64,000 nucleotides of DNA from Rhynchopus sp. YZ270_cl-10 (lineage: Eukaryota), in assembly GCA_964035575.1 (NCBI GenBank), contig OZ037839.1:1488001-1552000 (forward strand), read 5' to 3'. Positions 20,738-53,058 of this stretch are shown here, piece after piece; positions within the stretch are counted from its first letter, which is position 1; every line of letters begins with the position of its first letter. The position numbers were made by a program, and so were the translations under genes. A model generated the notes under the pieces. The model was not told where the DNA came from, did not search any database, and saw only the letters and a program-made list of their open reading frames with translations.

Positions 20738-20838
20738 GTATCGTCTTTTGAAAATGGACCAGAACAATCGTGGACCTTTTGGGATATTTTTTTTTTATGG
20801 ACCAATTTTTCTGGTCCATATTTTTTCAAAAGACGGTA
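20738..20838. mobile_element. Miniature TA-flanked TIR element
   Basis: TATCGTCTTTTGAAAA-TGGACCAGAA mirrored by TTCTGGTCCATATTTTTTCAAAAGACGGTA; the same terminus recurs at ~59270. Confidence 0.6.
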
Positions 20839-28080: not shown

Positions 28081-31000
28081 ATGCTCGCCTCCCCGCAGGA
28101 GGTGAAGAAAGCGGGGTCGTTCGCTGAGAAGTGGGATCCCGAGGATGAGTTGGGGGAGGTGTCTTTGGAGGAGGAGCTCGTCATCTTCAAGGCACAGGAG
28201 GAGGCGAAGGCACGGCAGCGGAAGAGCAGAGTCCAACGCATCGAGGTCCGGCAATGGCGAGACAAAGAGCACATCGAAGGCATCCTCAACCAGCCTCTCC
28301 TTCCTGTGGACGTTCAAACCGAGCTGGCAACTACAACCCAACTCATCCATGAAGGAATCCTACGGAACATGAAAGGCGACGAAAAAAGCGGTCTTTGGTG
28401 GTCCTCAGAGGGAGAGGAAGTGGTAGATTTTCGCCGATTAATGCAGTTTTCCGCCCACGTTGACGAACAGGAATGGTTAAAACGGCACCCAAACTGTACA
28501 CTAGAGGAAGCACTATCGATTTCGCCACTTCCCCGCTTCGTTGCCGCCTCACTTCCTTCAGCTCAAGAAGCGAATATCCCTGCAGAGTTTGACCTAACCC
28601 TAGAAGCCTCTACCACACACACACTCCGCTTCGCAACAATCCTCGATGCAGATGCCGTCATATCCGCTGCTCTTCGTTCGGCCCAACCTGACCTCGCATC
28701 GCGATACGTTCTCAAAGTGGTAGGCAAACGTGATTACATTTGGGGGTCAACCCGCATGGTGGATTTTACGTATATCAGAAAATGCGTCTTAGGTGGCATT
28801 CTCCCTGTGCTTTCCTTGGTTGAGGTGTCGGAGGAAGAGTGTGATGAGTCGTTGCTGCGTTATACCTTTCGTGACGTAAGCGAGGTGAAGGTGAGCTCCA
28901 GCTTTACCGGGAACGTTCAAGAGACGAAGGAGAGGACAGATGGAGCGAAACCTGCATTGCGTTATATCGATGACGCTGATTCTCATTTGTACGCGGAATA
29001 CCACTCCTATGATATGAACACTGATATCGAGGTGTCCGTTGAGTCGCTCTCGTGTATATGCTTACCACGCCACCTCGCGAAGGAGGGAGAGGAGGGGCGT
29101 GCTATGTATGTCTCGATCGTAGGTCAAATCTTTCATGGAACGGAAGGCTTAACCAAACCGATTGCGACCCCATGGAGAGTGGTAAATGACATAGGCGCAG
29201 AGTCTCTTTCCAACGCAGTGTGGGGAGGCGATATAGGCACCCTTCGCTTCCCCTTTAAGCTGTGCAATCTGCCGAGGGATGGGAGGCTGTGTTTTTCTGC
29301 TGCAGCGAGTTTTGATAAATCGTTTGTGACAAAAACAAAGGAAAACCTTGCGTGGGATGCGTCAAGCCTGTTGGAGAGCGAAGATGACAAAGAGGATGAA
29401 GGGAGTACATTGTTTTACCTTGGGTGGGTGAATCTGCAGTTTTTTGACCATGTAGGGTGTCTTCAATCTGGAAAAAAAGCTTTAAAAATGTGGCTAGGTG
29501 AGCAGGCAAATCCTATAGGAGTAGTTTCCACGCCAAAGAAAGAGAGTCATTTGGCTTTGGGAATTCGTTTACAACAATTCGCAAAACCGGTTCAATTTGA
29601 GTATGGAGAGGCCCCAGCGTATCTTCGAGAAGCATTAGTCGAAAAACACAAACAACGCATGAACGCCCTAGAACCGCATCTCCGCAAGAATGTGGTGAAC
29701 CAAATCCGTCAGGTCCGTTCGGTGATTCAAAAGGACCCGTTGTATAGGTTGACAGATGTGGATAAAATACTGTTGTGGCAGTTTCGTGGAGATTTGATCG
29801 AAAACCCGCACGCACTATCAAAATTTTTGCAGGCAATAGAGTGGTCATCACCGGCTGCGGTGCAGGACTGCATCTCCCTTCTATTTAACGAAGACAAAGC
29901 GGAGCGGTGGTCCCTCCCTCCGGCAGGCGAAGAGCTGCTAGCCTTAGAGCTTCTCGACGCACGCTACGCCAACTCTAAAGTGCGTGAGTACGCTCTCTCC
30001 ATTCTCGACCGTCTTCCCGATCCTCTCCTGCAGCAATGCATTCTCCAGCTTGTACAGGTCTTGAAATACGAGCCGTATCATTATTCAGCACTTAGCAGGT
30101 TTTTGCTGAAAAGGTCTGTGAATAGTCCGCATTTAGTAGGGCATGCAGTGTTTTGGCATTTAAAAGCGGAGATGGGGTCTTCAGCAGTCCAGGAAAGACA
30201 TGGTTTGTTGGTGGAGGAAATGTTGCGTCGTGTGCCAGTTCCGGTTCGACGCGGATTTGAAAAGCAAGATGCCTTAGTAGAAGTAATGCTAAAAATCGCA
30301 ATCGACATCAAAAAGACGAAGCAAAAAGACCGCAACCCAGCCCTCCGTGTTGAGCTTGAAAAGGTGCAGAAAATTTTGTCGGACGATATCAAATTCACAC
30401 TGCCTCTCGACCCACGGATGGAATGCTCTGGTCTCAAGGTCGAAAAATGCAAGGTAATGGACTCCAAAAAGCTTCCCCTCTGGCTCGTTTTCAAGAACGC
30501 CGACCCCCAGGGGGCACCGATTTACGTTATTTTCAAGGCGGGCGATGATTTAAGGCAGGATCTCTTAACATTACAGATCATAACAATGATGGACACAATG
30601 TGGAAGGCGCAGGGAATGGATCTGCGTATGTCCCCTTATGGGTGTGTGGCATGCGACGACGGGGTTGGGATGATCGAGGTAGTGCTGAACAGCGAAACCA
30701 TCGCAAATATTACGAAAAAGAGCGGCGGCGCCTCGATGGCATTTAAAGAGGAGCCGATGACCAACTGGCTGCGCAAACAGGACTGCAATCGCTCGCCGGA
30801 AGGGATCAAAAAATGCATGTACAACTTCATCTACTCCTGCAGCGGGTATTGCGTGGCAACGTACATTTTGGGGATTGGAGACCGTCACAACGACAATATC
30901 ATGCTGCAAGAGGATGGAACTCTTTTTCACATCGATTTTGGCCACTTTCTTGGCAACTTTAAAGCAAAATTTGGGATCAAAAGAGAAACGTCACCCTTTG

Positions 31001-31320
31001 TGTTCACTCCAATGTACGCCTATGTGCTAGGAGGGGAAAAAAGCGGGGTATACAAACACTTTGTCTCAGTAGCATGCGATGCGTACAACATAGTGAGGAA
31101 GAGCTCGCACATCATTGTCAGTCTCTTTGCGCTGATGCTGTCAACAGGGATCCCGGAGCTGGAGAAGCCGGATGACATAGAATGGTTGCAGAAGGTGCTT
31201 CTCGTGGGTGAGGACGACAACAACGCGAGAGGCCATTACGAAGACAGAATACGTGAGTCGCTTGCGAACAAACGGATTCTACTGAATGACTACATCCATA
31301 TCCGTGTACATTCCAAGTAG
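28081..31320 (+). CDS. Phosphatidylinositol 3-kinase catalytic subunit, class I-like, 1079 aa
   Basis: Ras-binding-like region (YVLKVVGKRDYIWG), C2 (NLPRDGRLCF, LGWVNLQFFD), helical domain (LELLDARY, QLVQVLKYE), kinase motifs MDSKKLPLWL, FKAGDDLRQD, LGIGDRHNDNIM, HIDFGHFLGNFK. Confidence 0.96.
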   Translation: MLASPQEVKKAGSFAEKWDPEDELGEVSLEEELVIFKAQEEAKARQRKSRVQRIEVRQWRDKEHIEGILNQPLLPVDVQTELATTTQLIHEGILRNMKGDEKSGLWWSSEGEEVVDFRRLMQFSAHVDEQEWLKRHPNCTLEEALSISPLPRFVAASLPSAQEANIPAEFDLTLEASTTHTLRFATILDADAVISAALRSAQPDLASRYVLKVVGKRDYIWGSTRMVDFTYIRKCVLGGILPVLSLVEVSEEECDESLLRYTFRDVSEVKVSSSFTGNVQETKERTDGAKPALRYIDDADSHLYAEYHSYDMNTDIEVSVESLSCICLPRHLAKEGEEGRAMYVSIVGQIFHGTEGLTKPIATPWRVVNDIGAESLSNAVWGGDIGTLRFPFKLCNLPRDGRLCFSAAASFDKSFVTKTKENLAWDASSLLESEDDKEDEGSTLFYLGWVNLQFFDHVGCLQSGKKALKMWLGEQANPIGVVSTPKKESHLALGIRLQQFAKPVQFEYGEAPAYLREALVEKHKQRMNALEPHLRKNVVNQIRQVRSVIQKDPLYRLTDVDKILLWQFRGDLIENPHALSKFLQAIEWSSPAAVQDCISLLFNEDKAERWSLPPAGEELLALELLDARYANSKVREYALSILDRLPDPLLQQCILQLVQVLKYEPYHYSALSRFLLKRSVNSPHLVGHAVFWHLKAEMGSSAVQERHGLLVEEMLRRVPVPVRRGFEKQDALVEVMLKIAIDIKKTKQKDRNPALRVELEKVQKILSDDIKFTLPLDPRMECSGLKVEKCKVMDSKKLPLWLVFKNADPQGAPIYVIFKAGDDLRQDLLTLQIITMMDTMWKAQGMDLRMSPYGCVACDDGVGMIEVVLNSETIANITKKSGGASMAFKEEPMTNWLRKQDCNRSPEGIKKCMYNFIYSCSGYCVATYILGIGDRHNDNIMLQEDGTLFHIDFGHFLGNFKAKFGIKRETSPFVFTPMYAYVLGGEKSGVYKHFVSVACDAYNIVRKSSHIIVSLFALMLSTGIPELEKPDDIEWLQKVLLVGEDDNNARGHYEDRIRESLANKRILLNDYIHIRVHSK

Positions 31321-32051
31321 CTTCTTTTCACCACTTCATAACCTCGTTTTTACCCAAATGTACGGCGATGCGAGAAGGTGAATACATTATGAGAGATTTA
31401 CAGTTTTCTGCACTTTTTCTTTCTGATGTAAAACGAAATAGATTGTAGGACTGCATGGTTTGGGTGCCTACCCCCGGTACAGCCGGTCATTTGTACCAAA
31501 GGTACACGGTTCACGAGAGGGCTGTTGTATTTCAAGTCAACTTTTGTGTTTCTCGCTGCCTGGCAGATCAAACCATTTTACTAATGCCGGGGGGCGAGGG
31601 GAGGAGGAGGAGGGGTTTACACGGTGTACCCTGTCACGCAAAAAGGTACACTGTCATGAGAGAGGGCTTTCTTTTTTTTTTGTATTTCAACAATTTGTTT
31701 TGGGTGAGAGGGGGTGGTGATGCAAAGAAAACGCTGATGCATTGTTTTGACATTTTTTATTTTTGTTTTATTTTATTTTTGACCCAGGGTCCTCAACCGT
31801 AGACAAAGTCTGGCCACAGATTTGTCTAAGTTAAAAAAAAAGGCTAAAAAAAAATTTTCGCGCTCCGCGCGAAAAGGTCCTGTACAAAGCTAAAAATTGG
31901 GGGCTTTTTTTTTTTGTGTTGCTTTTTCGAAACTCGTTAAGCGGTCTTTTCATTTCAATAGAAGAGTTCGACAAATGAACAATCACACCCCACCCCACCC
32001 CTTCGCCCCACCCGTACCCCTAACCCCATTGTCCCCCCAACCTGATAAGCA

Positions 32052-34898
32052 TCACACAGAAACTCTAACCTTCTTTCTTTTAAAGGCTTCAAAAATCCTT
32101 TGGATTTGGTCAGGCGTAAATTTATTCTCATTTGTCTCTGCCTGTTTGCACATATGAATGCATAGCAGACTTGAATCCAGCAGTTTGTTTCTGTAGCTAT
32201 TCTTGACGTACTTCATGCCGTTGAAGCAGCGCTCGTCTTCAACTGATGTGACGGGGATTGACAACCCAAGCAAAACAAGATCCCTCATAATGGGGTAGGC
32301 GTCTCCTGCGGAACTTGTCAAGAATGTTGCGATCAGGTCCGAAGTGTCCTTTGTTGTAGTTCTCTTCGACAAAACGTCCACCAGGATCCTCCATTCTTTC
32401 ACAGCTACAGCTTTCTTTGTCTCCAGACTGTTCAGTTCTGGCGACTCCTCAACGAACGGCGTCGTGTCCACGCTCAGTAACGGCGTTGTTTGAGTGCGCG
32501 ATATCACAGTATGCTCCGTCTTGGAGTACTCTGGTCTCCCACGCGTCTTCTCGCCCACAACATCGTACTTTTTGTACTCGAGTGTATGCAGCTCAGTAAA
32601 TTCCTCGATGAGCTTCTTCACCTCGGTGTTGCCGTAGATCGCCAGCCCGTCCGCGTTAGCAGGGAGGTTGCGGATGTCGAATACTGAGAAGCATCTCACA
32701 ATGTCCATGTTCACGAATCGTTCACTGAGGCACTTCAGCAGCTCCTTGAGGTATGGCTTGCAGACCGTGTCGTGATGAATCGCAAAGTTCCGACGGGAAA
32801 GTTTTGTACCGTGGCATTGATTATACCTCGGTACCCATTCTGGGTAGAACGGGAACATGTTCGGGTTGGTTTCAAGCAACGACAATGACGCAACACATTT
32901 GTCGATGTGGCTGCAAACGGTGAGCAGGTTTGTGTTCCTGCTCTGGAGCGACGTCGACAGCACGTTCAACTCGTCCAGGACCACCGTCATGAAGGACAAC
33001 GTTGCAAAAAAACCGGGCTCTTTGATGTGCTGCGCGATGAACGGTGCTTCCACGTCGCCGGCCTCTCCAAGCTTGCACAGGGCGCTGTGCACGGCGGGGT
33101 ACTCCTTGCGGACGGTGCTGCAACACCTGCCGTTGGTGAGCCACCGGGTGTCACCCGGCTTTGCGATGAGGATGTCACAGTACTCACACAAGTCGCGAAG
33201 TTCCTCCAGCATCTCCTCCAGGGTGTCGAGCTTAATCTTGGATCCCGAAAAAAAAACCCACACCCACCGCAGGCCGTCGAAGAACCGGGTAATCTCCGGC
33301 GATTTCCCCTCTGCCGCTGCTTCTGGGCCACAGAGTGCGAGGGAGTGTGCGTAGCACCAGGTGAAGAGGGCGCCTGGGTTTATGTCTGCACGGATTTGTT
33401 GTTGGCAGCCCTTGTTCGAGGAACGCATTGCCGATGCGCCATCAAACGAGCATCCACTCATCTTCCCGTAGTCGAGCCCGAGCTGGTCTATCCACTTCGT
33501 CAGCAACGACGCGTAACCAGCCCCCGTCTGGTCCTTCAGCTCACCCATCATGATGAGCTTCTCGACGGGGGTGGCACCGACCATGTATCGCACGACGAAG
33601 ACGAGTTGCTCCTTCTTGCTGACGTCGCGTGAGCAATCCCCCGACAGGCCCCAGAAACGGGAGGCTTTGACCTGCTTGAGGAGGTCTTCTGTCAACACCT
33701 CCGTGATGCAGGACATGATCTCTAAGACTGCACCGCAGCTGAGATAGCGTATTTGTTGTCTGAGGTATGCCTCCATGTCGGTGCACTCCAGCTTGTCTGC
33801 GAAAAAACTCAGAAACTCCTCCAAGTTAGAGTGCCCTACACCTTTGCGCGCGAGGAAAACAATAACCTCAATGCATATTTTCAGCATTTTTTGGTTGAAC
33901 TCGACTTCTTTGTCGCTGTTGGCGTGCAACGTGTGAAGCACGGTTCCATTGGAAGCCTGCAGAGCGGCAGCCTTCACGAGACGTTGGTGTTTGGGGTCGC
34001 CTGCATGCGCAGGGAGGTCTCTGGCGAGCTTGGTCTTTGCATGAGAGAAAGCACCACAATACAAGCACTTGAACTTGTCTTCACCCACCACCAACCAGGG
34101 GGAAAAACGGTTCAAATGGCCCTGCACCGTGCTCTCCCGCAGACCCATACAACCTTTCTCCTGCGCTTCGCGTTTACGTTTCAGCGTGTTGGTGGAGTCG
34201 GTGTTCGCTGGTGCGGTCGTGGTGTTCGTGAGGTTGGGATTGTTCGTGTTGGAGTGCGTGGGACCTAAGAAGACAACATCGCCGTCAGAAGAGTACTCGT
34301 CGACATCATCGATTTCCATTGCTGCCTCGGGTTGCTCGGATGCTGCGTTGCGTCTCACTGGCACACATTGCTCCTCCTCCTCTTCTTCGGACGTTGAATC
34401 CACGTACTTAACAGCACTCACCTGTGGAGCCATCATCACCACACGTTTCTTCACCTTCTTGCCTTGCGACACCTGGCTCTGCACAGACACGGCAGAGGCA
34501 TCGCTGTCTCCCCCCTTCTCTGCTTCGTTCATGGCGAACTCATGCGCCTCCGCAACGATCGTCAGGATCGTCTTCCGCTTGCTCCCCTCCCTGTCGTCGT
34601 CCGCCAGTTTGGCGCGATCAAACTCCTTCAACCAGAGTTTGAGCACCTTGTTGGTGTCGTTCTGGTGGTTTTTAAACCCCCTCACCGTCCCCTCCGCCAC
34701 AAGAAAAAGGTGAAGGGAAGCGAGCCGGGGTGTCGGACCATCGGGGATGGACTTGTACTTGCCTGAAGACCACAGGTCGTAGTGCGTATCCCCTTTGTTG
34801 GGTTCCACCACACGTACCACAGGTGCCGCAACAGCTCCCTTCTTGAACATGGACACGATGGTGGGCTGTGCTTTGGAGGTCTTGGCAGTGGCAGGCAT
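32052..34898 (-). CDS. hAT transposase, 948 aa (copy 2)
   Basis: Same protein as 15803-18649 except one visible change, CILMC to CIHMC. Confidence 0.95.
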   Translation of the reverse strand: MPATAKTSKAQPTIVSMFKKGAVAAPVVRVVEPNKGDTHYDLWSSGKYKSIPDGPTPRLASLHLFLVAEGTVRGFKNHQNDTNKVLKLWLKEFDRAKLADDDREGSKRKTILTIVAEAHEFAMNEAEKGGDSDASAVSVQSQVSQGKKVKKRVVMMAPQVSAVKYVDSTSEEEEEEQCVPVRRNAASEQPEAAMEIDDVDEYSSDGDVVFLGPTHSNTNNPNLTNTTTAPANTDSTNTLKRKREAQEKGCMGLRESTVQGHLNRFSPWLVVGEDKFKCLYCGAFSHAKTKLARDLPAHAGDPKHQRLVKAAALQASNGTVLHTLHANSDKEVEFNQKMLKICIEVIVFLARKGVGHSNLEEFLSFFADKLECTDMEAYLRQQIRYLSCGAVLEIMSCITEVLTEDLLKQVKASRFWGLSGDCSRDVSKKEQLVFVVRYMVGATPVEKLIMMGELKDQTGAGYASLLTKWIDQLGLDYGKMSGCSFDGASAMRSSNKGCQQQIRADINPGALFTWCYAHSLALCGPEAAAEGKSPEITRFFDGLRWVWVFFSGSKIKLDTLEEMLEELRDLCEYCDILIAKPGDTRWLTNGRCCSTVRKEYPAVHSALCKLGEAGDVEAPFIAQHIKEPGFFATLSFMTVVLDELNVLSTSLQSRNTNLLTVCSHIDKCVASLSLLETNPNMFPFYPEWVPRYNQCHGTKLSRRNFAIHHDTVCKPYLKELLKCLSERFVNMDIVRCFSVFDIRNLPANADGLAIYGNTEVKKLIEEFTELHTLEYKKYDVVGEKTRGRPEYSKTEHTVISRTQTTPLLSVDTTPFVEESPELNSLETKKAVAVKEWRILVDVLSKRTTTKDTSDLIATFLTSSAGDAYPIMRDLVLLGLSIPVTSVEDERCFNGMKYVKNSYRNKLLDSSLLCIHMCKQAETNENKFTPDQIQRIFEAFKRKKVRVSV

Positions 34899-35271
34899 TT
34901 TTGCGGATGAGTTTGTTCAATTGTAGTTAGTCTGAGGAGGTGGCTTGTGTGGGTGGGTACAATGGGGTCCGCGCAGGTGAGGACTGAGGGAGTCTTGAGG
35001 GAACTCATTTTTTTTTTTTGTTTTCAGTAAAGCTTCTTCTCTTTCAAACCACCCAAAAACCCAAAACCCAGGTTTTGTCTAACTTAGACAAAGCGTTTTT
35101 CAAAAAAAAAAAAAGGGTTAAATCCGGTGGTACCCATTTTCCTAGTACCCATTTTCGTTAATACCCATTTTTCAAAAGTGGGTACTAACGAAAATAAAAA
35201 GTGGGTATTAAAGAAAAGAAAAAATGGGTATTATCGAAAATATTTTGGGTACCTGGGTACTGGGTACCCAG

Positions 35272-35743
35272 GTACCCAGATACCCAGATACCCAGATACC
35301 CAGATACCCAGATACCCAGATACCCAGATACCCAGATACCCAGATACCCAGATACCCAGATACCCAGATACCCAGATACCCAGATACCCAGATACCCAGA
35401 TACCCAGATACCCAGATACCCAGATACCCAGATACCCAGATACCCAGATACCCAGATACCCAGATACCCAGATACCCAGATACCCAGATACCCAGATACC
35501 CAGATACCCAGATACCCAGATACCCAGATACCCAGATACCCAGATACCCAGATACCCAGATACCCAGATACCCAGATACCCAGATACCCAGATACCCAGA
35601 TACCCAGATACCCAGATACCCAGATACCCAGATACCCAGATACCCAGATACCCAGATACCCAGATACCCAGATACCCAGATACCCAGATACCCAGATACC
35701 CAGATACCCAGATACCCAGATACCCAGATACCCAGATACCCAG
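35272..35743. repeat. Octamer tandem array (GATACCCA)n, ~59 copies
   Basis: Directly visible, immediately inside the left MULE TIR. Confidence 0.98.
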
Positions 35744-36649
35744 GAACACAAGGAAAAAAGTCGTGAAAGAGCAACCACAGCTCCACATGACAAACACAAA
35801 AGTGTCCAGTCACGTGGGGCATTCATGCACTGAGGAGATAATGATCCAACAATTTACAAGAAAGATTACTTAACCTACTGCTGGAAATTGCCAGGTCGTA
35901 GTAACACACAAAGTGTGCCTCCGTTCGGGAAGACCGGATATTCTAGAGACCAAAAAGGCCTCAAGAATATCTTCCGGTAGTCAAGGTAGAACCGAGTGAA
36001 CGGCCCAAGACCCCCGTGGAGAAGTTAAATGTTGTAATGCTATCAGGTAGAAACTGCGAACACTGTCTTACCCTCCTCAATGCATGGTGGTTGATGTCTT
36101 CCACAACAAATTTCCTGTACCCAGGTACCCAGGTTCCCAGACCCACGCAGTACCACGTCGCAGTACTACGCAAAATTTACCACCAGACCCTGTCTTCGTG
36201 CACCTGAAGTACAACGCCGCAGACAGGCCAAACATGCGTTGGACTCAGAGGAATGCCCGCTGTGCAGGTATCATGAGAACCAACTCCCAGCAACAAGGGG
36301 CGCCTTTTGGCGGGCGTTGTTGAGGGTGTTTGGGGTGCAAAGTTTTCCACAATTTTGATGCGCGGGTACAGAAGTGTTATCTTGTTCTTTCATCTCTAAG
36401 AAATGTAAATGTCAATCGCGTTTAACTACCACTAGGGCTTGTTTAGTGAACCCACGAGGGGTCGAAGGGGGTTGGTTATCCCGTATCTATCAAAGGTTGT
36501 GTCGACCAGGCGAAACCACTATGTTACGCTGTACGTTGTTAAATCCGAAGAAATAACACTTTAGCAGCCGCAGGAAGTTTGCTAAAAAGAGTGCCTCACG
36601 CTACACAAACCACCACCCGCGATTGACTTAGATGTTATAACAAAGAGAA

Positions 36650-36915
36650 TTCAGAACAAAACAACACCCTGCCCCATACACACTAAATTGTCATGCTTCA
36701 AGAGCATGCCTGGGCCAAAATTACTATGACGAAAAGGCAACAAGACCACCCACAAGGAGTGTGAATTGTGCACTGGTTTTCTGGGGGAACAAACAATATT
36801 TTCTTGTGTCTAGTCCTCCGTAAGCAGAGGACAGACTTTCCGGAAGGTTTCCAAAGTCGAATTTCTTGCACTAGCTATGCTCCCTGGGTTAATGGCTATA
36901 GCAGTGACTGACAAA
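36650..36915 (+). ncRNA. Candidate structured non-coding module, copy 1
   Basis: High similarity to ~60868-61092 with frame-breaking indels in loops; hairpins CATGCT/AGCATG, GTCCTC/GAGGAC, GACTTT/AAAGTC, CACTAGCTATG/TATAGCAGTG. Confidence 0.4.
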
Positions 36916-37597
36916 GTGTTCCCACCCCCTTTTCACCGTAGATATACTCCCGAGATTGATGCCGGTTAACGCCCTTTGAATTTTGAGTTCCTGAATGTCG
37001 GAGAGCGGCGAAGGTTCAATATGTTCGCTCGTTCTGCGCAGTTGGTTCTCGATGTTGCACTCGCGATACCTGTTTAAAAGTGAAGTTGTGAGTGGTGGGG
37101 AAATTAAAGAAGGTGACTTCTTAAAAAATAAGTTGGCCTGAGGGTGTAAAATATTGTTCTGGAGACATTGCAAGAGGGGGGGTCACTTATGACCTGGATT
37201 GAACGCAAATGAGAACGGCATAAAAAGAGTAGCAAATGAGGAGGCGCTTCCGTTAAACGGAACACGCTACGGCAGCGCGAGAGGAGGATCATGTGAGGAA
37301 TAATTCATCAAGTAGTAGGGGAAATGAGAACAGAGGGAATAAAGATACTATAAAAAAACGTCGGGTGTTGTTGGGGGTATCGTTTTCGTGATTGCTTTGC
37401 TTTTTTTTTTATGTATCTGTACAAGGCAGGTGACCGGACGAGGTGTCACTACTCTAAACTCTAAACTCTAAAAGAAAATAAAAACAAGGGACAAAAAACA
37501 AACAATGATCAAGTCATCACATTGCCACCTCCACCAGGCTAAAGAACGAGATCAAATCACTCTAAACTCTAAAAAAAAATGATTTTAAAAAAAAAAA

Positions 37598-40408
37598 TCA
37601 TGAATCAGACGAGAGGCAGGCAAACTGAGACAAAGCGTTCTGCTGAATGAGCTCAATAAGGTCGTCCTTACGGATATTATTGGTGATTTTGATTTTCCTG
37701 TCCGAGGCCTCTTGCTTCAGGGAAGCCACAGTCAGCTCACTCAACTGCCGAACGCAGTAGACCTGGTAGCCACTGTACATATCCCTAAAAAAATCCAGTG
37801 TTCCGGATTGCTCTGCTGCATCCGTGTCTTTCAGATCAAACTGATTATCTTTAGCAAGAACCGTGGCCCAGTGGTTTGCGTTAGGGTCAGATGATGGGCC
37901 AAAGAAGAATCCCACAAGACCTCTCGGGCTCTCACTGTCAGAGTTGCGATGGTGCGTGACCAGCGTCCCCCTGCTCAACAAGAGCACGCTCAGGACAGTG
38001 TGGGAGATCCATCCACCCAAAATGGAATCTTCCGCGTTTTCGGAGGAAGAATATTCCGAGCGCACAGTGGACCCTACTTCGTCCTGCATCTTCAACAGAA
38101 GCGAGTAAGGAACCCTGGGGTGTCCGTTGTGAACGAGAACCCAGTTCACTGCCGCCCACCCACACTCGCACTCAGCGCGACCTTCCCCCCCTCTCTGGTG
38201 CTTCGACATCGGGACGCGGGTGTCGGCCGTCCGAATCGACTCCTGCAGGTCCTCCCGCGTAACGGCAACCGTAACCTCCACCTTTCGCTTCTTTTTCGCG
38301 CGACCTTCGTTGGCCCGAATGCGCTTCTCCTTCGGCCTCCCCAACCCCCTCGCCTTCAGCGGCGGGGCCATGCGCGTCTCGTCCACTTCGAACCCGTCGC
38401 AGCTGATGGGGGCAACAGGGGAGCTGTACGTCTGTTTCAGTGCCCGGTTCTTCATGAACGCGGGGAGGTACAGATCCACCTGCTTCCCAGAACTGATCAG
38501 CGCCGCGGCGAAGTGCACGCAAATGCCATGCATGCTCAGGTGTGGACAGCTGCAAGAAGGGGGGTCACTTCCTTCGGAAGGATTTCTGGGTATGATGACG
38601 GTGTACCGCCTCCCAGAAGAGCTCGCCGCAGTCAGCCGAATCTGGAATTCGGAATACGGTTCTGTGTCCCCGAAACGCCTCGACGGGATCGCCGTGTAGG
38701 CTTCCGACGAAGTGCAGATGTTCTCCACCCTGGACCTCCAGTAGGAGGTGAGCTCCACATCCTCCAGAGCCTGCGACTCGTGCATCCTCGTGGAGACCAG
38801 ATCCATCATCTTCTCACGGAAGGTGTCGAGCAGGCCCAAGATGGGGAGTTTGCGGGCGGTGCCCAACCAGTTGTTGCTGCTCTCAGCAACATTTGTCCCG
38901 TAGTGGAACGCGCGGAAGGTGGAGGAAGGCGCATGCACATCCGCGAAGTAGCGCTGCAGGTTCTGGAGGTAGTTCTTGGCAGCGGGGGTCACCCTTCGGA
39001 TCTCTTCGAGGGTGGTGTCGTAGTCCTCACGCGAGGCAGCCCGCTGGAGCAGGTCAAATCTTGCGACTACCTCCTTCCCAAACTTCTTCACTGTCCGCTT
39101 CAGGTGCGTACCACACAGGAGGTGAGTCCAGTTATCAGGGACTGCACGCTTGACTGTGGATTCGATACCCGTGAAGTGGTCGGTGTAAAGAGTGGCTTTG
39201 TGGGGGAGCGCGAGAGCGGTGGCACAACTACGAAGAAACTCCTCCCACGCCACCCCCGTCTCAGACGGAGCCCACATGCACGCCAGAGGGTAAATCCTAC
39301 TAAGCGCATCAACTCCGACAAAAAAGTAGAAAACACCCGAGCACCCCTCTCCAGTCAAGTGGGTGGAATCCGCGGAGAAGACGGGGGGGAGATGCGGTGC
39401 AGCTACAATCGAAGACCCCAGACATAAAAAAGGGCCCTTTATCACCCCGTCATCCCCGCATGTTGCAACTGTGGTAGAGTCGGCCTCTCGCAGCTTCGAG
39501 AAGAAGAAAGGAATTTTCAACCAGCTTGTTGACCCGTTGCCCCACTTCTCCACCTGTATCGCCTTTTGTACCCTCCACGCAACCTGGTATGAAGCTTTGG
39601 CGTTCGTGTTGGCTTGGATTTGCGCGGGTGTGTGAGGTACCAGGGTCACAGAAGTTTTGTGCTCCTGCTTCAGGTGCTTCGAGGTGTAGCGTCCCCCTCC
39701 GGAGGTCGCCCTCCCAACACAAGTATGTGCTGCATCACACTTGATGATGTAGCCGTCGGACGACACCTTCACCTTCACTTGCCAGGCACAGGAGACTGCG
39801 TCTTCCCCATCTCCCACCATCCCCCGGCATTCCACATTCCACCGGGTCTTGTCGGCCCGCCGGTTGTACAGCTCCTTCCCGTCTTGGCACATTGCCGCAA
39901 TCACAAATAGCCGCAAACCGTCCATGGTCGAGAATCGATAACCATGGAGGTCGTCGGGGTGACTGGACACCGGTTTAACGGGGGCATCCTCGGGGTTTTT
40001 GGGAGAGCGCACAGGGGGTGTCACGGCTGATGCCGCGGCTGAAGGAGGGACTGATGGTGGAGGGGATGAGGACACGGCTGACGCAGGGGCTACAGATGAC
40101 GCGGCTGGTAGAGGAACTGGCGGCGCGGCTGGTGGCGGGACTGGTGACGCGGCTGGTGGCGGGACTGGTGACGCGGCTGGTGGGTTCACTTTCTTCGGGC
40201 GCGTTTGCGGCCGGGGTTGGGGTTGCTGCTGGTGCAGTTGCTGCTGGTCCTGCTGGAGCTGGGGGAGTCTCAGGCTCTGCTCCAGGTACGTCGCCCTCAT
40301 GGCGGCGAACTCCTCTGCGGAGATCACCTTGTCGGCGTGCAGTTCGGACGCCGCCCTCAAACACTGTAGAAAGTGTAGGTTCTGCATCTTTAAAAAGGTG
40401 GCCTGCAT
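37598..40408 (-). CDS. MULE/MuDR transposase (~936 aa from MQATFLK) with SWIM finger and extra C-terminal domains
   Basis: DDE core VFSADSTHL...GVDA...YPLA...LYTD...HLLCGTHL...TNVAESSN; SWIM CSCPHLSMHGICVH; GRPKEKR basic motif; N-terminal C...C...HxC module; start placed after a C-rich leader. Confidence 0.92.
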   Translation of the reverse strand: MQATFLKMQNLHFLQCLRAASELHADKVISAEEFAAMRATYLEQSLRLPQLQQDQQQLHQQQPQPRPQTRPKKVNPPAASPVPPPAASPVPPPAAPPVPLPAASSVAPASAVSSSPPPSVPPSAAASAVTPPVRSPKNPEDAPVKPVSSHPDDLHGYRFSTMDGLRLFVIAAMCQDGKELYNRRADKTRWNVECRGMVGDGEDAVSCAWQVKVKVSSDGYIIKCDAAHTCVGRATSGGGRYTSKHLKQEHKTSVTLVPHTPAQIQANTNAKASYQVAWRVQKAIQVEKWGNGSTSWLKIPFFFSKLREADSTTVATCGDDGVIKGPFLCLGSSIVAAPHLPPVFSADSTHLTGEGCSGVFYFFVGVDALSRIYPLACMWAPSETGVAWEEFLRSCATALALPHKATLYTDHFTGIESTVKRAVPDNWTHLLCGTHLKRTVKKFGKEVVARFDLLQRAASREDYDTTLEEIRRVTPAAKNYLQNLQRYFADVHAPSSTFRAFHYGTNVAESSNNWLGTARKLPILGLLDTFREKMMDLVSTRMHESQALEDVELTSYWRSRVENICTSSEAYTAIPSRRFGDTEPYSEFQIRLTAASSSGRRYTVIIPRNPSEGSDPPSCSCPHLSMHGICVHFAAALISSGKQVDLYLPAFMKNRALKQTYSSPVAPISCDGFEVDETRMAPPLKARGLGRPKEKRIRANEGRAKKKRKVEVTVAVTREDLQESIRTADTRVPMSKHQRGGEGRAECECGWAAVNWVLVHNGHPRVPYSLLLKMQDEVGSTVRSEYSSSENAEDSILGGWISHTVLSVLLLSRGTLVTHHRNSDSESPRGLVGFFFGPSSDPNANHWATVLAKDNQFDLKDTDAAEQSGTLDFFRDMYSGYQVYCVRQLSELTVASLKQEASDRKIKITNNIRKDDLIELIQQNALSQFACLSSDS

Positions 40409-40538
40409 GGGGGTCTTGTAGGGGCGGGGGGGGCGGGGGAGGGGGGCGGTGGGCTGGAATGTGCACCTCGCAGGTACCAAATAATAAGAGAGGGGGGTGG
40501 AGATCGTTTTGTCTATAGAACCGAAGCACACTCTCATG

Positions 40539-40960
40539 GTGCAAACCGCGCAGCAGAAACACACTCATACAATCCGCGCAGCAGAACCGAAACACACTCA
40601 TACAATCCGCGCAGCAGAATCGAAACACACTCATGCAATCCGCGCAGCAGAACCGAAACACACTCATGCAATCCGCGCAGCAGAACCGAAACACACTCAT
40701 ACAATCCGCGCAGCAGAAACACACTCCTATAGTGCAATCCGCGCAGCAGAACCGAAACACACTCATGCAATCCGCGCAGCAGAAACACACTCTTATAGTG
40801 CAATCCGCGCAGCAGAAACACACTCCTATAGTGCAATCCGCGCAGCAGAACCGAAACACACTCATGCAATCCGCGCAGCAGAACCGAAACACACTCATAC
40901 AATCCGCGCAGCAGAAACACACTCTTATAGTGCAATCCGCGCAGCAGAACCGAAACACAC
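40539..40960. repeat. ~30-33-bp minisatellite upstream of the MULE transposase
   Basis: Repeated CAATCCGCGCAGCAGAA(CCGAA)ACACACTC units, about 13 copies. Confidence 0.95.
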
Positions 40961-41162
40961 CTTCTTGCCCGCGTAAAACTGTAGTTTACGAAGGTCAAGA
41001 TACAATACCTTCTTGCCCGCGTAAAACTGTAGTTTACGAAGGTCAAGATACAACCCCTTCTTGCCCGCGTAAAACTGTAGTTTACGAAGGTCAAGATACA
41101 ATACCTTCTTGCCCGCGTAAAACTGTAGTTTACGAAGGTCAAGATACAACCCCTTCTTGCCC
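40959..41162. repeat. 48-bp tandem repeat, ~4 copies
   Basis: CCTTCTTGCCCGCGTAAAACTGTAGTTTACGAAGGTCAAGATACAA(TA/CC); internal hairpin CGTAAA...TTTACG. Confidence 0.95.
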
Positions 41163-41807
41163 TTAGAGTTTAAAGGAGTGACTCGTCCGGTCACCTGCCT
41201 AGTAAAGATACATAAAATAGCAAAAATTCTTCCACGTCCTCTGGTAACACTGCACTTTCAGCACTTCAAACTCCGAAGCCGACATCAATCCTTGCTCTAC
41301 CAGCGGGAAAACCGCTCCAGCGATTCAGCCAACTTGGCAATGTCATCCATTATTTTTTTAAAATACTAATTAAAAGGCTCAACTAAAAGTAACTGTTTGG
41401 GAAGGGGGTAGAGGGGTGAATGTCATACCATTTCAGTTTCTTGTGACCGGCGAAGGTTCTCATCGCAATTGTGCATGCAGTTCAGATCTCACGATCCTGT
41501 GATGGTTGTGAAATGTTGTTGTGAAACGTCCATCCGAGGGCACACAATGATACATCACACACGGAAGATAGACGTGCAAGCATGGTGTACGAGTAGACGG
41601 CCTTGAGGGCCGAGTTCTGCATGAATGCAGCAACGAAGAGGTCCACCTGTTTCCAGGAGAACATGCCATTTTGTAGCAAATGGGGAGGCGCTGCTGCATC
41701 ATAATAACTGCAAATGAGAAAATAACGAGGAGGGACATACCTTGTCTTGCGCCTTCGCTGCTGTCAAGGTGCCTTCTCTGGGTGCCCAGGTACCTGGTGT
41801 ACCTGGG

Positions 41808-41957
41808 CAGTACCCAGTACCCAGTACCCAGTACCCAGTACCCAGTACCCAGTACCCAGTACCCAGTACCCAGTACCCAGTACCCAGTACCCAGTACCCA
41901 GTACCCAGTACCCAGTACCCAGTACCCAGTACCCAGTACCCAGTACCCAGTACCCAT
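41808..41957. repeat. Heptamer tandem array (GTACCCA)n, ~21 copies
   Basis: Directly visible near the right MULE TIR. Confidence 0.98.
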
Positions 41958-42519
41958 AATACCCAAATAATTTAGGCTCCCACCCAGAACCGCGTTTAAG
42001 ACCCCCACAGATGCTCAAAAGTGCCAAATTTTGCTTGTAATGGCCTCAAATCGTCGAAATTAGCCCATATAGGCAAAAAAAAAAAAAAAAAAAATCGAGA
42101 GCCCCTTTCCCTGGGAGACAATAGGGTACCCAGCCAGGTACCCAGTACCCAAAATATTTTCGATAATACCCATTTTTTCTTTTCTTTAATACCCACTTTT
42201 TATTTTCGTTAGTACCCACTTTTGAAAATGGGTATTAACGAGAATGGGTACTAGGAAAATGGGTATTAAAGAGAAAAACCCAAAAAAAAATTGTCTAAGT
42301 TAAGGCCTAACTTAGACAGGTTGAGGACCCTGTTTTGACCAACGAAAGAACAAAAAAACTCACCCCCCCAATCTTTTTCCATACGGCCACATTAACCTCC
42401 CCAAAACCTTCCAAAACCCAACAGCTATATTCTATCACATTTAACACAACTTCCCCTCTCATTCCCCTCCTTTTTGTGCGGCGTCTCCAAAAACCCTTTT
42501 TTTTTTGTTCTTTGACACC

Positions 42520-44109
42520 ATGCCGAAAGCGCTCGATGGCAAACCTCAGAGCAGACTGAACAACAACGTGGCAGAAGGAGGAGGAGACGCGCCGTCACAC
42601 CCACCACCGCCCCCTCCACCACCATTCACATCACCACCTGTCTCCACCACTGGCACGTTGCTGGCATCTGGGCCACCTCCACCGCCACCTCTACCACCGC
42701 AGGTCTACGCTAATGGCATGGTGATTGCATCTGCACCACCACCACCACCGCCCCCTTCTATTGCTGATGCATTGCGTGCAACGGTTTTACCACCACCACC
42801 GCCACCACCACCATTGGGTGTTAAGACCGACACAGCCAGTAGAAGCACCACAAAACAGATCCATTGGGGGAAGATCGCGGATCCAAAAAATGAGGACTCA
42901 GCATGGCACGCGGGAGGCGTGGCTGTAGACGGTGCCGAGCTGCGCAGGCTCTTTCAGGTGAAGCAACGCAAGCCGTTGGGTGCCCCTACTGTGCAGAAGG
43001 GGAATACCTTTGTTCTCTCTGCGCAGCGTGCGAAGAATATTGGGATTTGTCTAAAGGGGCTGGGGAAGGGTGGGAGCACTGCTGGTATTGTGCATCTGGT
43101 GGATACGTTGGGCACCGGGCATGATGGTGCGTCGTTGCTTGAGATTGTTGCGTTGTTGCCGCAACTTCTTCCGACTGCTGCCGAGAGGAGCGCATTCGAG
43201 AAGATGAAAGGAACGGAGCTGACTGCAGTGGAAAGCGTGGTGATGGAGTTGGGTAGGGTGCCGCAGATTGCAGAGAAAATCCGCTGTTTGACGCACATCA
43301 CGCACTTCATCCTCGCCTTGAAGGAGTGTGAAGGGCAGATCGGTGGACTCCACGCAGCGGTGTCTTCTGCTGTCCGGTCTTCTCGTCTGGCCACTGCGCT
43401 GTGTACTGCGGTTGCTGCTGGAAATATCCTCAACCAAGACAAACCTTGGGGAAACGCGGTCGCAGTCTCTCCGGACAGTCTCGCAAAGCTGGCTGATGTG
43501 CGTAGCACCGATGGGGCGAACTGGACATTGCTTCAAATGGTTTACGACACTCTCGATGCAGACGATGGGGTACGCTTCTTCAGCTACCTCCAGGGTGAAA
43601 CCTGCAAACTCAACTCTGACGCACTTCGGTGCAGCCTACAAGATGTCCAATCCACCTTGAAGTCGCTCTTCGAGCAGGTCAAATGGATGCACGCGATCGA
43701 ATGGGAGGATGCAGCCTACAGCACCACCCTGCATTCGCTCTTCCTCCAATCACCTTGGGTCAAGCGTCTGGAGCAGTCGAACTACGAGTTCAAAAGGCTC
43801 CTCCACGCTGTCGATGGGTTTCTGGTAAGGTTTGCGTGGAAAGCCTACCATTTGGATGATTCACTCCAGGCACTTTGCGGGTTCAAAGACGCACTTCTCG
43901 CGCTCCACGCACAGCGTGTCACAAAGGAGGAGGGCACCAGGGGAGGCAAAGACTCCGCCCCGCAAACAGACGTGCTCCTCAAATGGGCCCTCGGCGAGGT
44001 GCACATCCCTGCTGCGGAGGTCGGGTTTGTTCCGATCGGATCGTTCGTCCGTGTGGCGAAGGGTGAAGGTCAAAAAACGATCGGAGTCAAAAGGCCCAGA
44101 GAAGAGTGA
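42520..44109 (+). CDS. Formin-like protein (FH1 polyproline + FH2)
   Basis: Several polyproline tracts followed by FH2 motifs KQIHWGKI...SAW, ELRRLF, LSAQRAKNIGICL, LLPTAAE, AGNILN...GNAVAV...LAKLADVRS. Confidence 0.88.
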   Translation: MPKALDGKPQSRLNNNVAEGGGDAPSHPPPPPPPPFTSPPVSTTGTLLASGPPPPPPLPPQVYANGMVIASAPPPPPPPSIADALRATVLPPPPPPPPLGVKTDTASRSTTKQIHWGKIADPKNEDSAWHAGGVAVDGAELRRLFQVKQRKPLGAPTVQKGNTFVLSAQRAKNIGICLKGLGKGGSTAGIVHLVDTLGTGHDGASLLEIVALLPQLLPTAAERSAFEKMKGTELTAVESVVMELGRVPQIAEKIRCLTHITHFILALKECEGQIGGLHAAVSSAVRSSRLATALCTAVAAGNILNQDKPWGNAVAVSPDSLAKLADVRSTDGANWTLLQMVYDTLDADDGVRFFSYLQGETCKLNSDALRCSLQDVQSTLKSLFEQVKWMHAIEWEDAAYSTTLHSLFLQSPWVKRLEQSNYEFKRLLHAVDGFLVRFAWKAYHLDDSLQALCGFKDALLALHAQRVTKEEGTRGGKDSAPQTDVLLKWALGEVHIPAAEVGFVPIGSFVRVAKGEGQKTIGVKRPREE

Positions 44110-46754: not shown

Positions 46755-47627
46755 GTCTTTTTTTTTTTGTATTCCCAGTCACCCCACACAAAAGCCCCCC
46801 CCCTTTTTTTATCGTTTTGAAGAATTTTCTCCCTTTATTTTTGGAAACCCACTCCTTTGTGTGGTTTCTTTTTTCTCTTTTTCGTTCTTTTTCATTTATA
46901 TGGCCACATCCAAAGAACGCCCAGCCAAAAAAGGGGAAAAGGCACTAGAACTGCCATTTTTTATGGGGAAGGTCTTTTGCACGTAGCCTTTATTTGAAAA
47001 AGAAAAAAGGGGGAATATAGTTCTTCATCTGTTCCATTACTGTTTTATTTTGGTCTTCAGTTTTTCTGGAGATCTGTTTAGAACAGCATTTTCCGCTTTT
47101 GTCATTAAATAACCATGGATGGACTGCGCACAAGATCCTCGGAACCTGTGTCGCATATATTCGCTTAGCCATTTAAAGAAAATCACAAACAAAATAAAAG
47201 TAATCTCCAAAAGTAACGCATCTAATACCTTTTTGGTGGTTTCCCACATTGTGCTTGTTTTTCATCGAATGGTGATGCTCACATGGCAAAAAAGGATACC
47301 TTTCTTGAGGTGCCATCTCCCGTCTCCGGGTCATGGTTCACCTACCTTTTATCCCCTTATATTTAGCAAAATACAAAACAAAAGAAAAAAAGTTATCCCC
47401 ACCATTATACAGTTATTCAAAGTACCACAAATTTGCTAGTTTGTACCCCACAATTTTTATTGGTGACGATGCTATGCCGACAACGGTTGTGATGTGGATG
47501 TGACCAACCATGAGAGCCCGAACCTGTGGGTTTTGTGTCGGGAGCAATGCTTAGCTCTGTCGTGAGGATGTGCTCGCTGCACGACAACACAATAACGGAG
47601 ATACAGAAGAAAGTACAAAATGTACCT

Positions 47628-47684
47628 CCCCTCCTCCTCCTTCTCAACACCACCCCACAACAGTGCAACACTTCACTCGAAACA
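47628..47684 (+). promoter_or_regulatory. Putative trans-splice acceptor leader shared by the LRR paralogues
   Basis: CCTCCCTCCTCCTCCTTCTCAACAC...ACAG ~20 nt before ACAATGGAAC; conserved at ~49510, ~54010 and ~57670. Confidence 0.55.
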
Positions 47685-49247: not shown

Positions 49248-49564
49248 ACAGGAGCAGGACAAGCTGGATGAACAGAGGGGTTTGGGGGGTTTGGTGATTA
49301 GTGTGAAGAACACTTCGGTGAAAATATCAACTTCATATATGGATTCACTTTTGAGCTGGGGTGGAATATTTGGCAGGTTTGGTGCACAACTCTGACAAAC
49401 CGGAGTGTCCCACCACTTTTTGTGAACAACGTGTCAGCCCAGGGTCTTTTCTACCACACATAGTAAAGTGAAAAACAAACAAGAAAGCTATTTTGTTGTA
49501 TCTTGCCTCCCTCCTCCTCCTTCTCAACACCACCCCACAACAGAGCAACACTTCACTCGAAACA

Positions 49565-51144: not shown

Positions 51145-52138
51145 TACAGCTGTGAACACTTGGGAATAATCTTAGTGACCCTCTCCAGACGGCTGATGCC
51201 CAATATGGGCGCACGCTTGCCCTATACGGCTTGAGGGTAGCATACATGACGTTGCCATCATGAGAGATGGCACCTGTCACTTCTTCTTCAGATGTGGAAG
51301 CATATGAGGACAAAGAAGGAAGCTCTTCGTTTTGCAACACACAACGTTGCACTTCAGCTGCTGCTTTATAATAAAAACGACTCGTCCTCCTGCACCTCCT
51401 CCGACCCGTTCGAGTCACCCTCGGACAGCTCGCACTCCACCGCTGACCTCTCAGACGCACCCCCAAACCGTGGATGCGGTCTCCGCACCATCCCCCAACG
51501 GACCCGCAAGCGCAAGCGCCGCAATCACGCCCCGGTGTATTCCTCTACTGATGACGATGTACAACCCAAAAGGCTTAGGAAGCCCCCTCCCAAGAAGCAA
51601 CAAACCCCCCCAAAAAGAAGAAACAGAAGAAGGTCTCCCCCCCGAGAGACGTAAACGTGAACGATCACACCGTCGCCCCATCAAGCGCATACCTCCTCGT
51701 CTGAGGACAAGGAACCTGTTAAAAAACGTCATAGATACGACCAGCTGGATTCTGAAAAGAAAGGCCCCAGATCTGAGGCCTTTTCGCGAGTGAACTTTTG
51801 GACAGTGGAGATTTGCACAAAACTGTGGCAACACAACCGAGGCAACTACACTACTCCAACAATTTATCTAAAAAAAGATTTATCAAAAAGAGAAAGAAAA
51901 CATTTTAAGGAAACTCAAGAGCACCACCCACACACCCACCCACCCGCAGTGTTTGCACTTTGAACCTCTGAGGCGGCACATGTGGAAGCCACATCTCACA
52001 TTGTCTCTTCTCCTTCGCACACCTCACGTTGTTTCAATCGACCCAACCCTACGGTCCACCATCACACCACCACCCTCTTCTCCCACACTTCCCCTACCTA
52101 CCCCGCACCTATCTGACCCACGCCAGAGCTACACTCGG

Positions 52139-52972: not shown

Positions 52973-53058
52973 AGGTGGCAAGAAGGCTGTTGCAGACCCG
53001 CACATCATACATCATGCACACACGGCATGTTCCGCTACGACTGTTGGATTGAGAAGCC

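Follow-up and report, generated by a model that had tools for sequence, protein, structure and literature searches.

A long minus-strand open reading frame in the window (the whole 64,000-nt stretch of DNA analysed) joins a Mutator-type transposase to an additional C-terminal domain, which raises the question of what this domain is and what it might do for the element that carries it. An earlier note had proposed a papain-fold, Josephin-like cysteine protease. All of the motifs that it quoted share one minus-strand frame, 37598-40564 from stop to stop, whose lone stop is at its end, and a frame check placed the start of MSKHQ at 38209, as the note had it. From the N- to the C-terminus, the frame encodes a MULE DDE transposase, a SWIM finger, a basic patch, the extra domain of ~160 residues and a SAP-like tail, the last a feature absent from the earlier note. 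The fusion protein is intronless and a single chain. Its features are:

37598..40408, minus strand: fusion ORF, 936 aa from a Met at 40408 (start assumed; the frame is open to 40564)
40289..40360, minus strand: SHOCT-like N-terminal helix pair, followed by a Gln/Pro-rich linker (Pfam PF09851 E 0.024 and E 0.004, below cut-off)
39098..39379, minus strand: MULE transposase domain PF10551 (32.1 bits against a cut-off of 27.6; residues 345-438 of P0001)
38492..38569, minus strand: SWIM zinc finger (PF04434 E 0.0052, below cut-off; residues 615-640)
38282..38338, minus strand: basic patch, by its sequence a likely nuclear localisation signal
37739..38218, minus strand: predicted Josephin-like papain-fold cysteine protease domain (from relatives, alignment, fold model and structure searches)
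Cys 38164-38162, His 37873-37871 (followed by Trp) and Asp 37828-37826, minus strand: candidate triad in the sequence
37640..37747, minus strand: SAP/Rho_N-like helix-extension-helix tail, likely nucleic-acid binding (C-terminal piece, Rho_N E 0.0038 and SAP E 0.036, below cut-off)

The proposal that a Mutator transposase with a SWIM finger and a basic motif precedes the extra domain was borne out, with PF10551 above its cut-off and SWIM below. The MULE residues are D348 (39370), D411 (39181), C433 and H436 of the CxxH motif (39115 and 39106) and E510 (38884). The CxxH lies 22 residues past the second D, and the (C/D)xxH of MULEs is expected 15-45 residues after it (PMC5499845). Equivalents of D348, D411, C433, H436 and E510 are kept in P0005, a second MULE with the same fusion, whose C-terminus has a similar SAP-like tail. 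Judged by its residues, the transposase part is an intact Mutator type with the DDE triad and CxxH in place.

The setting of the ORF also carries MULE features, which are long terminal inverted repeats (>100 bp) and a target duplication of 8-10 bp; the arms here span 144 nt, and a 9-bp A duplication is seen against the empty site.

35115..42281, no strand: 7,167-bp insertion holding the fusion ORF, with GGG...CCC ends and a 9-bp A duplication at its flanks
35131..35269, plus strand: left terminal inverted repeat arm, then an 8-bp tandem array (94.4% over 144 nt to the right arm)
42124..42265, minus strand: right terminal inverted repeat arm, after a 7-bp tandem array; pairs with the left arm
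37407..37464, plus strand: left arm of an inner inverted repeat (87.9% over 58 nt to 41163-41217)
41163..41217, minus strand: right arm of the inner inverted repeat, adjoining 33-bp and 48-bp tandem arrays upstream of the fusion ORF
41587..41682, minus strand: remnant (32 codons) of a related MULE transposase, from the part after SWIM (tblastn E 3.2e-7, 66% identity to P0005)
31785..42332, minus strand: host hAT element split by the insertion (948-aa ORF 32052-34898; 8-bp TSD TTTTGACC)

The insertion is flanked by 13 A on the left and 9 A on the right, and the empty site of the sister hAT copy has 13 A. In public contigs its right end meets different flanks. The interrupted hAT shares 99.6% identity with its uninterrupted counterpart at 15536-18906, and the hAT copy that received the 7.17-kb element is young. 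A target duplication around the inner inverted repeat pair was looked for and none was found. Since this inner repeat without a duplication and the related-transposase relic both lie inside the outer repeats, the block with the fusion ORF may be nested in the element or captured by it, and the outer repeats are only putatively those that this transposase recognises. The extra domain was searched for elsewhere in the window, and no further copy turned up. The window also holds a tandem LRR protein family, one tested member of which has a weak ubiquitin-like domain (E 0.0044).

To determine how widely the extra domain is conserved, relatives were sought by phmmer among 1.84 billion proteins. Nine of the ten matches are true relatives. 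The tenth, P0013, a repeat protein lacking the motifs, was judged spurious and left out of both alignments. P0012, a 94-aa fragment with Arg in place of the Cys and similarity that ends after the first motif, was left out of the second alignment, A2. Ten sites are invariant in all eight A2 rows covering them (C19, H116, W117, D131, T132, E18, W21, A22, N25 and W26), as is G69 in 9/9, at pairwise identities mostly of 20-43%, a conservation that is partly circular because the relatives were found with the window domain as query. The triad conservation in homologues that the earlier note had named as a check is thus present. A regular expression for the ordered motifs matched one of 50,000 shuffles, a figure that overstates the rarity since the expression was composed after viewing the sequence. 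Collectively, the nine real matches and the invariant motif residues show a conservation of the aligned sequences that exceeds chance.

P0005 is 44% identical to the window protein overall and 39% in the extra domain. In the tree, the two fused domains cluster with a decayed copy and the fragment P0010 (support 94/99). The decayed copy, P0004 (86% identical), has an internal deletion and an altered Gly after the Cys, and ends short of the His. Stand-alone relatives also exist, including P0008 and P0009 in the Lacrimia lanifica transcriptome. Intact fused proteins number just two so far; both come from ENA contigs that may represent one lineage.

Further searches added little to this family. 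Length-limited, word-indexed homologue searches returned the window's own protein alone (1/731 and 1/7,991 candidates), and the four matches of a length-limited profile search of 4,832 candidates were all family members already known. A scan for ECGWAxxNW gave 45 metagenome loci and one viral locus, none of which (0/46) contained a MULE relative or matched the profile outside the motif itself. The best matches of a viral search with the domain were weak, an Orpheovirus Josephin being third (E 7.5e-4). Against PDB sequences, P0005 had one match, which was irrelevant, and the C-terminal piece alone had 11 by phmmer, none of them to proteases (best E 0.057).

Folding the extra domain with the alignment of its relatives gave a model of papain arrangement (pLDDT 83.4, pTM 0.82). 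The Cys is at the start of helix 19-30, the His just before strand 118-123 and the Asp at the end of strand 126-131, positions that fit the Josephin arrangement. Helices 38-56 and 62-67 form a hairpin after the catalytic helix, with a pLDDT of only 53-59 at residues 51-70. A single-sequence fold (pLDDT 42), for which a wide VIA search gave no Z of at least 5, was discarded.

The six best Foldseek matches of the model were ataxin-3, ATXN3L and JOSD2 (best E 1.8e-6, TM 0.63; identity to solved Josephins 14-18%), followed by C39 peptidases (7.8e-5, TM 0.51). When the 999 chains aligned by Foldseek were re-aligned with VIA, Josephins again took the best six places (JOSD2 Z 12.3, rmsd 3.0, 127 residues aligned; ATXN3L Z 11.6, rmsd 3.3, 140 aligned), and the best C39 peptidase had Z 8.8. 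A VIA search independent of Foldseek, over 48,161 representative solved chains, ranked JOSD2 (12.3), ATXN3L (11.5), PaJOS (9.0), PcJOS (8.9) and BpJOS (8.5) first to fifth, with the C39 domain of ComA (Z 8.3), UfSP1 (ninth, Z 8.0) and VTD (Z 5.9-7.8) after them. No OTU or Ulp1 chain was named among the best 50 of either VIA search; lower ranks may hold them. The family profile, which does not depend on the model, was compared with the PDB and matched ATXN3L best after two designed repeat proteins (E 0.078), pairing GGW(F/I)S and HW with the Josephin motifs. In the ESM Atlas, used for leads only, the two best named clusters for the window domain were Josephins (0.86, PF02099 on 83% of members; 0.85, 99%) and the third was C39 (0.85); for P0007, unnamed phage proteins, C39 (25% of members) and DUF261 appeared, with no Josephin among the rows listed. 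Together, the papain fold of the model and the first place of Josephins in Foldseek and both VIA searches agree with the earlier note, and the predicted domain almost certainly adopts a Josephin-like fold.

Two other identities were considered and rejected. The catalytic order of Ulp1/C48 proteases is His-Asp-Cys, which is the wrong order for this domain, whose invariant Cys comes first, with the invariant His and Asp ~100 residues later. VTD proteases need Asp-x-His without an aromatic gatekeeper (PMC9741609), and the window domain has His-Trp with the Asp 15 residues on.

How closely does the domain follow the Josephin family in detail? On the predicted model, its papain-like fold is nearest to solved Josephins. 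The candidate residues follow the Josephin order of Cys, His and Asn/Asp, and the His-to-Asp spacing is 15, as between His119 and residue 134 of ataxin-3 (PMC4276913); for bacterial Josephins, it is 16 (bioRxiv 2024.07.24.604956). The same preprint describes an aromatic gatekeeper right after the catalytic His of Josephins, and W117 takes this place in 8/8 rows. The helical hairpin between the catalytic helix and the GGW helix, a Josephin-specific feature (PMC4276913), is present in the model as helices alpha2/alpha3, its second half with low confidence. Position 8 of the domain is Q, V, E, M, T, K, K and Q across A2. The oxyanion Gln of Josephins, in the HEKQ motif, sits five residues before the Cys, and no Gln is conserved in A2 either there or at position 8. 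The earlier mapping of KHQR onto HEKQ holds only in part: the His is kept (6/7 rows with a residue) but lies 12 residues before the Cys, and the Gln after it is not conserved. Position 12 (-7 from the Cys) is E/Q in 7/8 rows and could stand in for the oxyanion Gln. The His found three residues past the Cys in the Josephin motif is Ala in 8/8 family rows. Pfam PF02099 matched neither the window protein (E up to 10) nor any of the ten search matches (E up to 1). This silence marks the domain, as modelled, as a divergent Josephin-like subfamily and not a canonical member.

We propose that the fusion would make a transposase-tethered deubiquitinase, a Mutator transposase joined in frame to a predicted Josephin-fold cysteine protease. 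The extra domain would catalyse through Cys, His and Asp, with the Trp after the His as a gatekeeper for a small-residue (Gly-Gly) C-terminus and the hairpin binding ubiquitin. The transposase and the SAP-like tail would hold the enzyme at transposon ends or target chromatin. There it would free the transposase, or proteins at the DNA sites it occupies, of ubiquitin and thereby aid transposition; it would shield the transpososome from proteasomal removal or reset ubiquitin marks at the break. On the modelled fold, the domain is very probably an active protease, and ubiquitin is probably its substrate. That help to transposition in cis is why the domain was retained has an even chance or slightly better, and the explanation as a whole is one that we somewhat favour. 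Since the protein is an intronless single chain and its small domain folds well in silico, a catalytic-Cys mutant would give a direct test.

Departure from the canonical Josephin motifs suits a different substrate for an active Josephin-fold protease: a ubiquitin-like modifier or UBL fusion (NEDD8, SUMO, UFM1 or host UBL-LRR proteins), or ubiquitin itself, cut after Arg74 by a clippase like the bacterial Josephins. Those bacterial proteins, which include clippases (bioRxiv 2024.07.24.604956), rank third to fifth of 48,161; UfSP1 is ninth (Z 8.0), other MULEs carry the SUMO protease Ulp1, and the tested LRR protein in the window has its weak ubiquitin-like domain (E 0.0044). However, the fit is clearly better for conventional eukaryotic Josephins (Z 11.5-12.3) than for clippases (8.5-8.9) or for UfSP1, and past its catalytic helix the model has a long helix (38-56), which in conventional Josephins positions ubiquitin. 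We consider this reading unlikely. Less likely still is a C39-like or general papain-clan peptidase with no ubiquitin role, which would process the transposase polyprotein, for instance by freeing the core from its tails, or cut a host silencing factor. By fold, C39 double-glycine peptidases come next (Z 8.2-8.8), the ECGWA motif resembles the C39 catalytic motif, and the Atlas gave C39 and DUF261 for P0007 and placed C39 third (0.85) for the window domain. Josephins are nevertheless ahead by 3-4 Z units, the model has the Josephin-specific hairpin (PMC4276913), the profile matched 12 PDB sequences, none of them a C39 chain, and neither the window protein nor the search matches have a Pfam C39 match.

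The domain might also be a captured host gene carried as neutral cargo, Pack-MULE style, and useless to the element. MULEs frequently capture gene pieces (PMC5499845), stand-alone relatives occur, two of them in the Lacrimia lanifica transcriptome (P0008 and P0009), and P0004 has decayed. Yet the in-frame fusion and the triad are intact in two transposases that are just 44% identical, and the domain diverges about like the rest (39%) while its catalytic residues are fixed. A frame kept across such divergence is unlike neutral cargo, and this reading is very improbable. The tethered deubiquitinase is preferred. An extended form of it is tentative, and we would sooner bet against it: the domain would be the founding member of an unrecognised Josephin subfamily missed by Pfam, and the fifth ubiquitin-system protease class recruited by diplonemid-like protist transposons, after Ulp1, OTU, USP/C19 and VTD. 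It would be an active enzyme, whose cleavage mode or linkage preference may be new, kept on DNA by the SAP tail so as to counter a ubiquitin-based host defence against transposases; the stand-alone, nuclear-type Lacrimia relatives would be host donors or domesticated descendants.

The pick-up of ubiquitin or SUMO proteases by transposons (Ulp1, OTU, C19, VTD) is recurrent. In the literature searched, no Josephin was found on any transposon, and seven supplementary files of the Diplonema genome paper contain no Josephin, MULE, PF02099 or ataxin-3. A Josephin-type domain, if true, would be one more independent recruitment, of a class not found on mobile elements in that literature. It would strengthen the case for ubiquitin as a general host barrier to transposition, and would add to the small Josephin family a divergent branch overlooked by Pfam. 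The bacterial Josephin branch proved to have new cleavage chemistry.

Among known systems, the eukaryotic Josephins JOSD2 (6pgv), ATXN3L (3o65) and ataxin-3 (1yzb, 2dos) are most like the window domain in predicted fold (Z 10.8-12.3, rmsd 3.0-4.0 over 127-143 residues). They share with it the order Cys...G-aromatic-x-S...His-Trp...Asp, a His-to-acid spacing of 15 and the hairpin past the catalytic helix. Unlike them, the window domain reaches its Cys through a longer loop, lacks a conserved Gln where Josephins have theirs, and carries Ala and Asn-Trp in the catalytic helix; the window protein has no UIM by Pfam and is fused to a transposase and a SAP-like tail. The bacterial Josephins PaJOS, PcJOS and BpJOS likewise have a divergent Josephin fold, Cys-His-Asp and an aromatic residue after the His (Z 8.5-9.1), but fit less well than the eukaryotic ones and are bacterial effectors, several of them clippases, for which the accessible description gives no transposon link (bioRxiv 10.1101/2024.07.24.604956). 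C39 peptidases (ComA, PCAT1) have a related small papain fold (Z 8.2-8.8) and the same Cys-His-Asp order, but are bacterial, sit on ABC exporters, and have a lower structural fit and no sequence-profile match.

Ulp1, OTU and C19 domains occur on other transposases (PMC2836005). MULEs with Ulp1 (C48) proteases, already known as the earlier note said, and Ginger1 with its C-terminal OTU/Ulp1 (PMC2836005) likewise join a DDE transposase to a cysteine protease of the ubiquitin/SUMO system, with the same proposed logic. The protease class differs here, where the Cys precedes the His and Asp and the predicted fold is Josephin-like. Helitrons with VTD/OTU domains also encode a papain-fold deubiquitinase in their main ORF, and the VTD domains have activity on K48/K63 chains, their proposed role being the protection of transposition proteins (PMC9741609). 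Helitrons, however, are rolling-circle elements, and their VTD has Asp-x-His and no aromatic gatekeeper, whereas the window domain has His-Trp...Asp.

The whole fusion lies in one stop-free, intron-free frame on the minus strand, with the following features.

37598-40564, minus strand: stop-free frame
40408, minus strand: Met from which 936 residues are encoded
N-terminal part: SHOCT-like start (Pfam)
Fusion protein: MULE domain (Pfam, above cut-off)
Fusion protein: SWIM (Pfam)
37739-38218, minus strand: extra domain of ~160 residues, without a Pfam match, including to Pfam Josephin
C-terminal end: SAP/Rho_N-like tail (Pfam)

The transposase retains D348, D411, C433-x-x-H436 and E510, the residue set given as the MULE signature in PMC5499845. 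The fusion of a Mutator transposase to an extra domain, claimed in the earlier note, is confirmed. At a G run at 40426 the window has one base more than the contigs of all four sequencing runs compared, and P0003, the database copy of the protein, differs from it at the start, upstream of this run. The extra base, likely a homopolymer difference, affects just the sequence preceding the Met at 40408, where the protein probably starts.

Word-indexed homologue searches matched solely the window protein itself. A phmmer search with the domain against 1.84 billion representatives returned 10 matches, of which nine are true relatives. One of these, P0005 (777 aa), is another MULE; it shares 44% identity with the window protein over 788 columns and also has MULE, SWIM, the same domain (39% identical) and a similar tail. 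P0004 is a decayed relative (86% identical), P0010 and P0012 are fragments, and P0006-P0009 and P0011 are proteins of 171-331 aa without a transposase. P0008 and P0009, from the transcriptome of the diplonemid Lacrimia lanifica, both carry basic tails. These tails are NLS-like or histone H1-like, and the two proteins, stand-alone expressed members of the domain's protease family, may be donors or domesticated copies. The relatives were aligned in nine rows (alignment A2), excluding P0012 and the spurious repeat protein P0013, with pairwise identities of 20-43% excepting the window/P0004 pair. Cys, His-Trp and Asp-Thr were each invariant in 8/8 covering rows, upholding the proposed triad in homologues by a test that is partly circular, since the relatives were chosen with the window domain as query. 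The oxyanion Gln is not conserved in A2 at its usual Josephin place. In a small tree, the window protein, P0004, P0005 and P0010 clustered with support of 94/99, under the tool's star threshold, a grouping consistent with a single capture by a MULE ancestor. The relatives found, along with the intron-free ORFs, point to a diplonemid or a related organism as the probable host.

Folded as a single sequence, the domain gave a pLDDT of 42; with A2, this was 83.4 (pTM 0.82; five models spanning 77.8-83.4). In the A2-based model, the catalytic helix spans 19-30 and is followed by a hairpin of two helices (38-56 and 62-67; low confidence at 51-70) and a further helix (73-81), and the His and Asp sit on strands; the ataxin-3 triad and hairpin are described in PMC4276913. 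Using Foldseek, ataxin-3, ATXN3L and JOSD2 filled the top six rows, with C39 peptidases next. Structural re-alignment with VIA gave Z 12.3 for JOSD2 (rmsd 3.0, 127 aligned), 11.6 for ATXN3L, 10.2-11.1 for ataxin-3, 9.1 for PaJOS and 8.8 for C39. In a Foldseek-independent search of 48,161 chains, the top five were Josephins, and papain-clan proteases ran all through the best 50. Two model-free comparisons lend weak support: the A2 profile had 12 PDB matches including ATXN3L (E 0.078) and ataxin-3 (E 1.0-1.3), with two designed TIM barrels, matched via repeats, outranking ATXN3L and calmodulins intermixed, and two Josephin clusters topped the named Atlas clusters for the window domain (0.86 and 0.85, at the level of a lead). 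Counter to this, the Atlas neighbours of P0007 were unnamed phage proteins, C39 and DUF261; the lack of a Pfam Josephin match and of a conserved oxyanion Gln in its usual position also count against a Josephin. That the domain is a C39-like processing protease is improbable; the model lies nearest to Josephins. Collectively, these results suggest that the domain has a Josephin fold, as predicted by the model, and the Josephin-like claim of the earlier note is supported as regards fold and conserved triad.

The fusion is present and retained in two diverged MULEs with invariant catalytic-type residues, and it is very unlikely that the domain is neutral cargo. It is probably an active Cys-His-Asp enzyme, in which the Trp after the His would serve as the aromatic gatekeeper, as in conventional DUBs (bioRxiv 2024.07.24.604956). 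The transposase and SAP tail would keep the enzyme on DNA, where it likely deubiquitinates the transpososome or the chromatin nearby. Action on a different modifier, or in a clippase mode, is rather unlikely, albeit slightly less so than C39-like processing.

Two hAT copies (15536-18906 and 31785-42332), 99.6% identical and ~13 kb apart, are both intact, with a 948-aa transposase, 14-bp matching ends and separate, different 8-bp duplications; the family is recently active. The second copy is split by a 7,167-bp insertion (35115-42281) with ends GGG...CCC, 144-nt arms 94.4% alike and a flanking 9-bp A duplication (13+9 A vs 13 A at the empty site). The insertion therefore postdates a hAT copy that is itself very recent, and its ends are MULE-type. 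In public contigs, the right end at 42281 was attached to other flanks. Summed depth, which is not copy number and comes from runs that may include the window's source, was ~100x unique flank over the arm in runs X1 and X2, and approximately flank depth over the ORF in difference-free contigs (91-109 in X1, 98-101 in X2), suggesting that copies with TIRs are many and copies of the ORF few, alongside degenerate relatives with indels. The ORF is bracketed by an inner inverted repeat of 58 nt, which has no target duplication around it and outside which lies a 32-codon remnant of a transposase resembling P0005; therefore, the outer TIRs may be served by this transposase or by another.

Within the right arm, a ~75-bp piece (41988-42065) is a very abundant small repeat, with summed contig depth thousands-fold over unique flank and a relative at 62751-62885. 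Internal segments of the 7,167-bp element (36222-36920) recur, 71-75% alike, at 60302-61098, where the DNA is rich in repeats and inverted repeats near 59385 and 63726 form the borders. Host genes flank the locus: an intronless class I-like PI3 kinase with RBD, C2, PIK and kinase domains (28081-31320) on one side, an FH2 formin (42520-44109) on the other. At 47547-58940 are at least four tandem BspA-type LRR genes, 79-97% alike and some broken; the member tested has a weak N-terminal ubiquitin-like domain. Inside this array, an ORF (51980-52972) whose C-terminal part is a GIY-YIG domain (E 6.9e-7) is possibly a mobile nuclease gene. A Foldback-like element (10341-11652) has inverted arms of 10-bp tandem units, and a stretch within it (11143-11290) matches a tandem array of four 262-bp copies at 22191-23245. 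Further MITE-like small inverted-repeat elements and dispersed repeats lie at 19865-20226, 20777-20838 with 59270-59331, and 3697-3850 with 19238-19391.

No Josephin on a transposon was found in the literature searched, including PMC6431247 and PMC5718144; Repbase and subscription journals lay outside it, and an earlier annotation there is possible. The searched text of PMC6446971 contains none of the words protease, Ulp1 or ubiquitin, and that of PMC10161547 mentions Diplonema MULE-like ORFs without domain detail. PMC2836005 describes Mutator elements with Ulp1, Ginger1 transposases with C-terminal OTU or Ulp1, Helitrons with OTU and a Trichomonas transposase with a C19 domain, and VTD domains of Helitrons are active DUBs (PMC9741609). 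Together, these comparisons suggest that the Josephin-type class, apparently not yet reported there, joins a known kind of fusion between a transposase and a ubiquitin-system protease.
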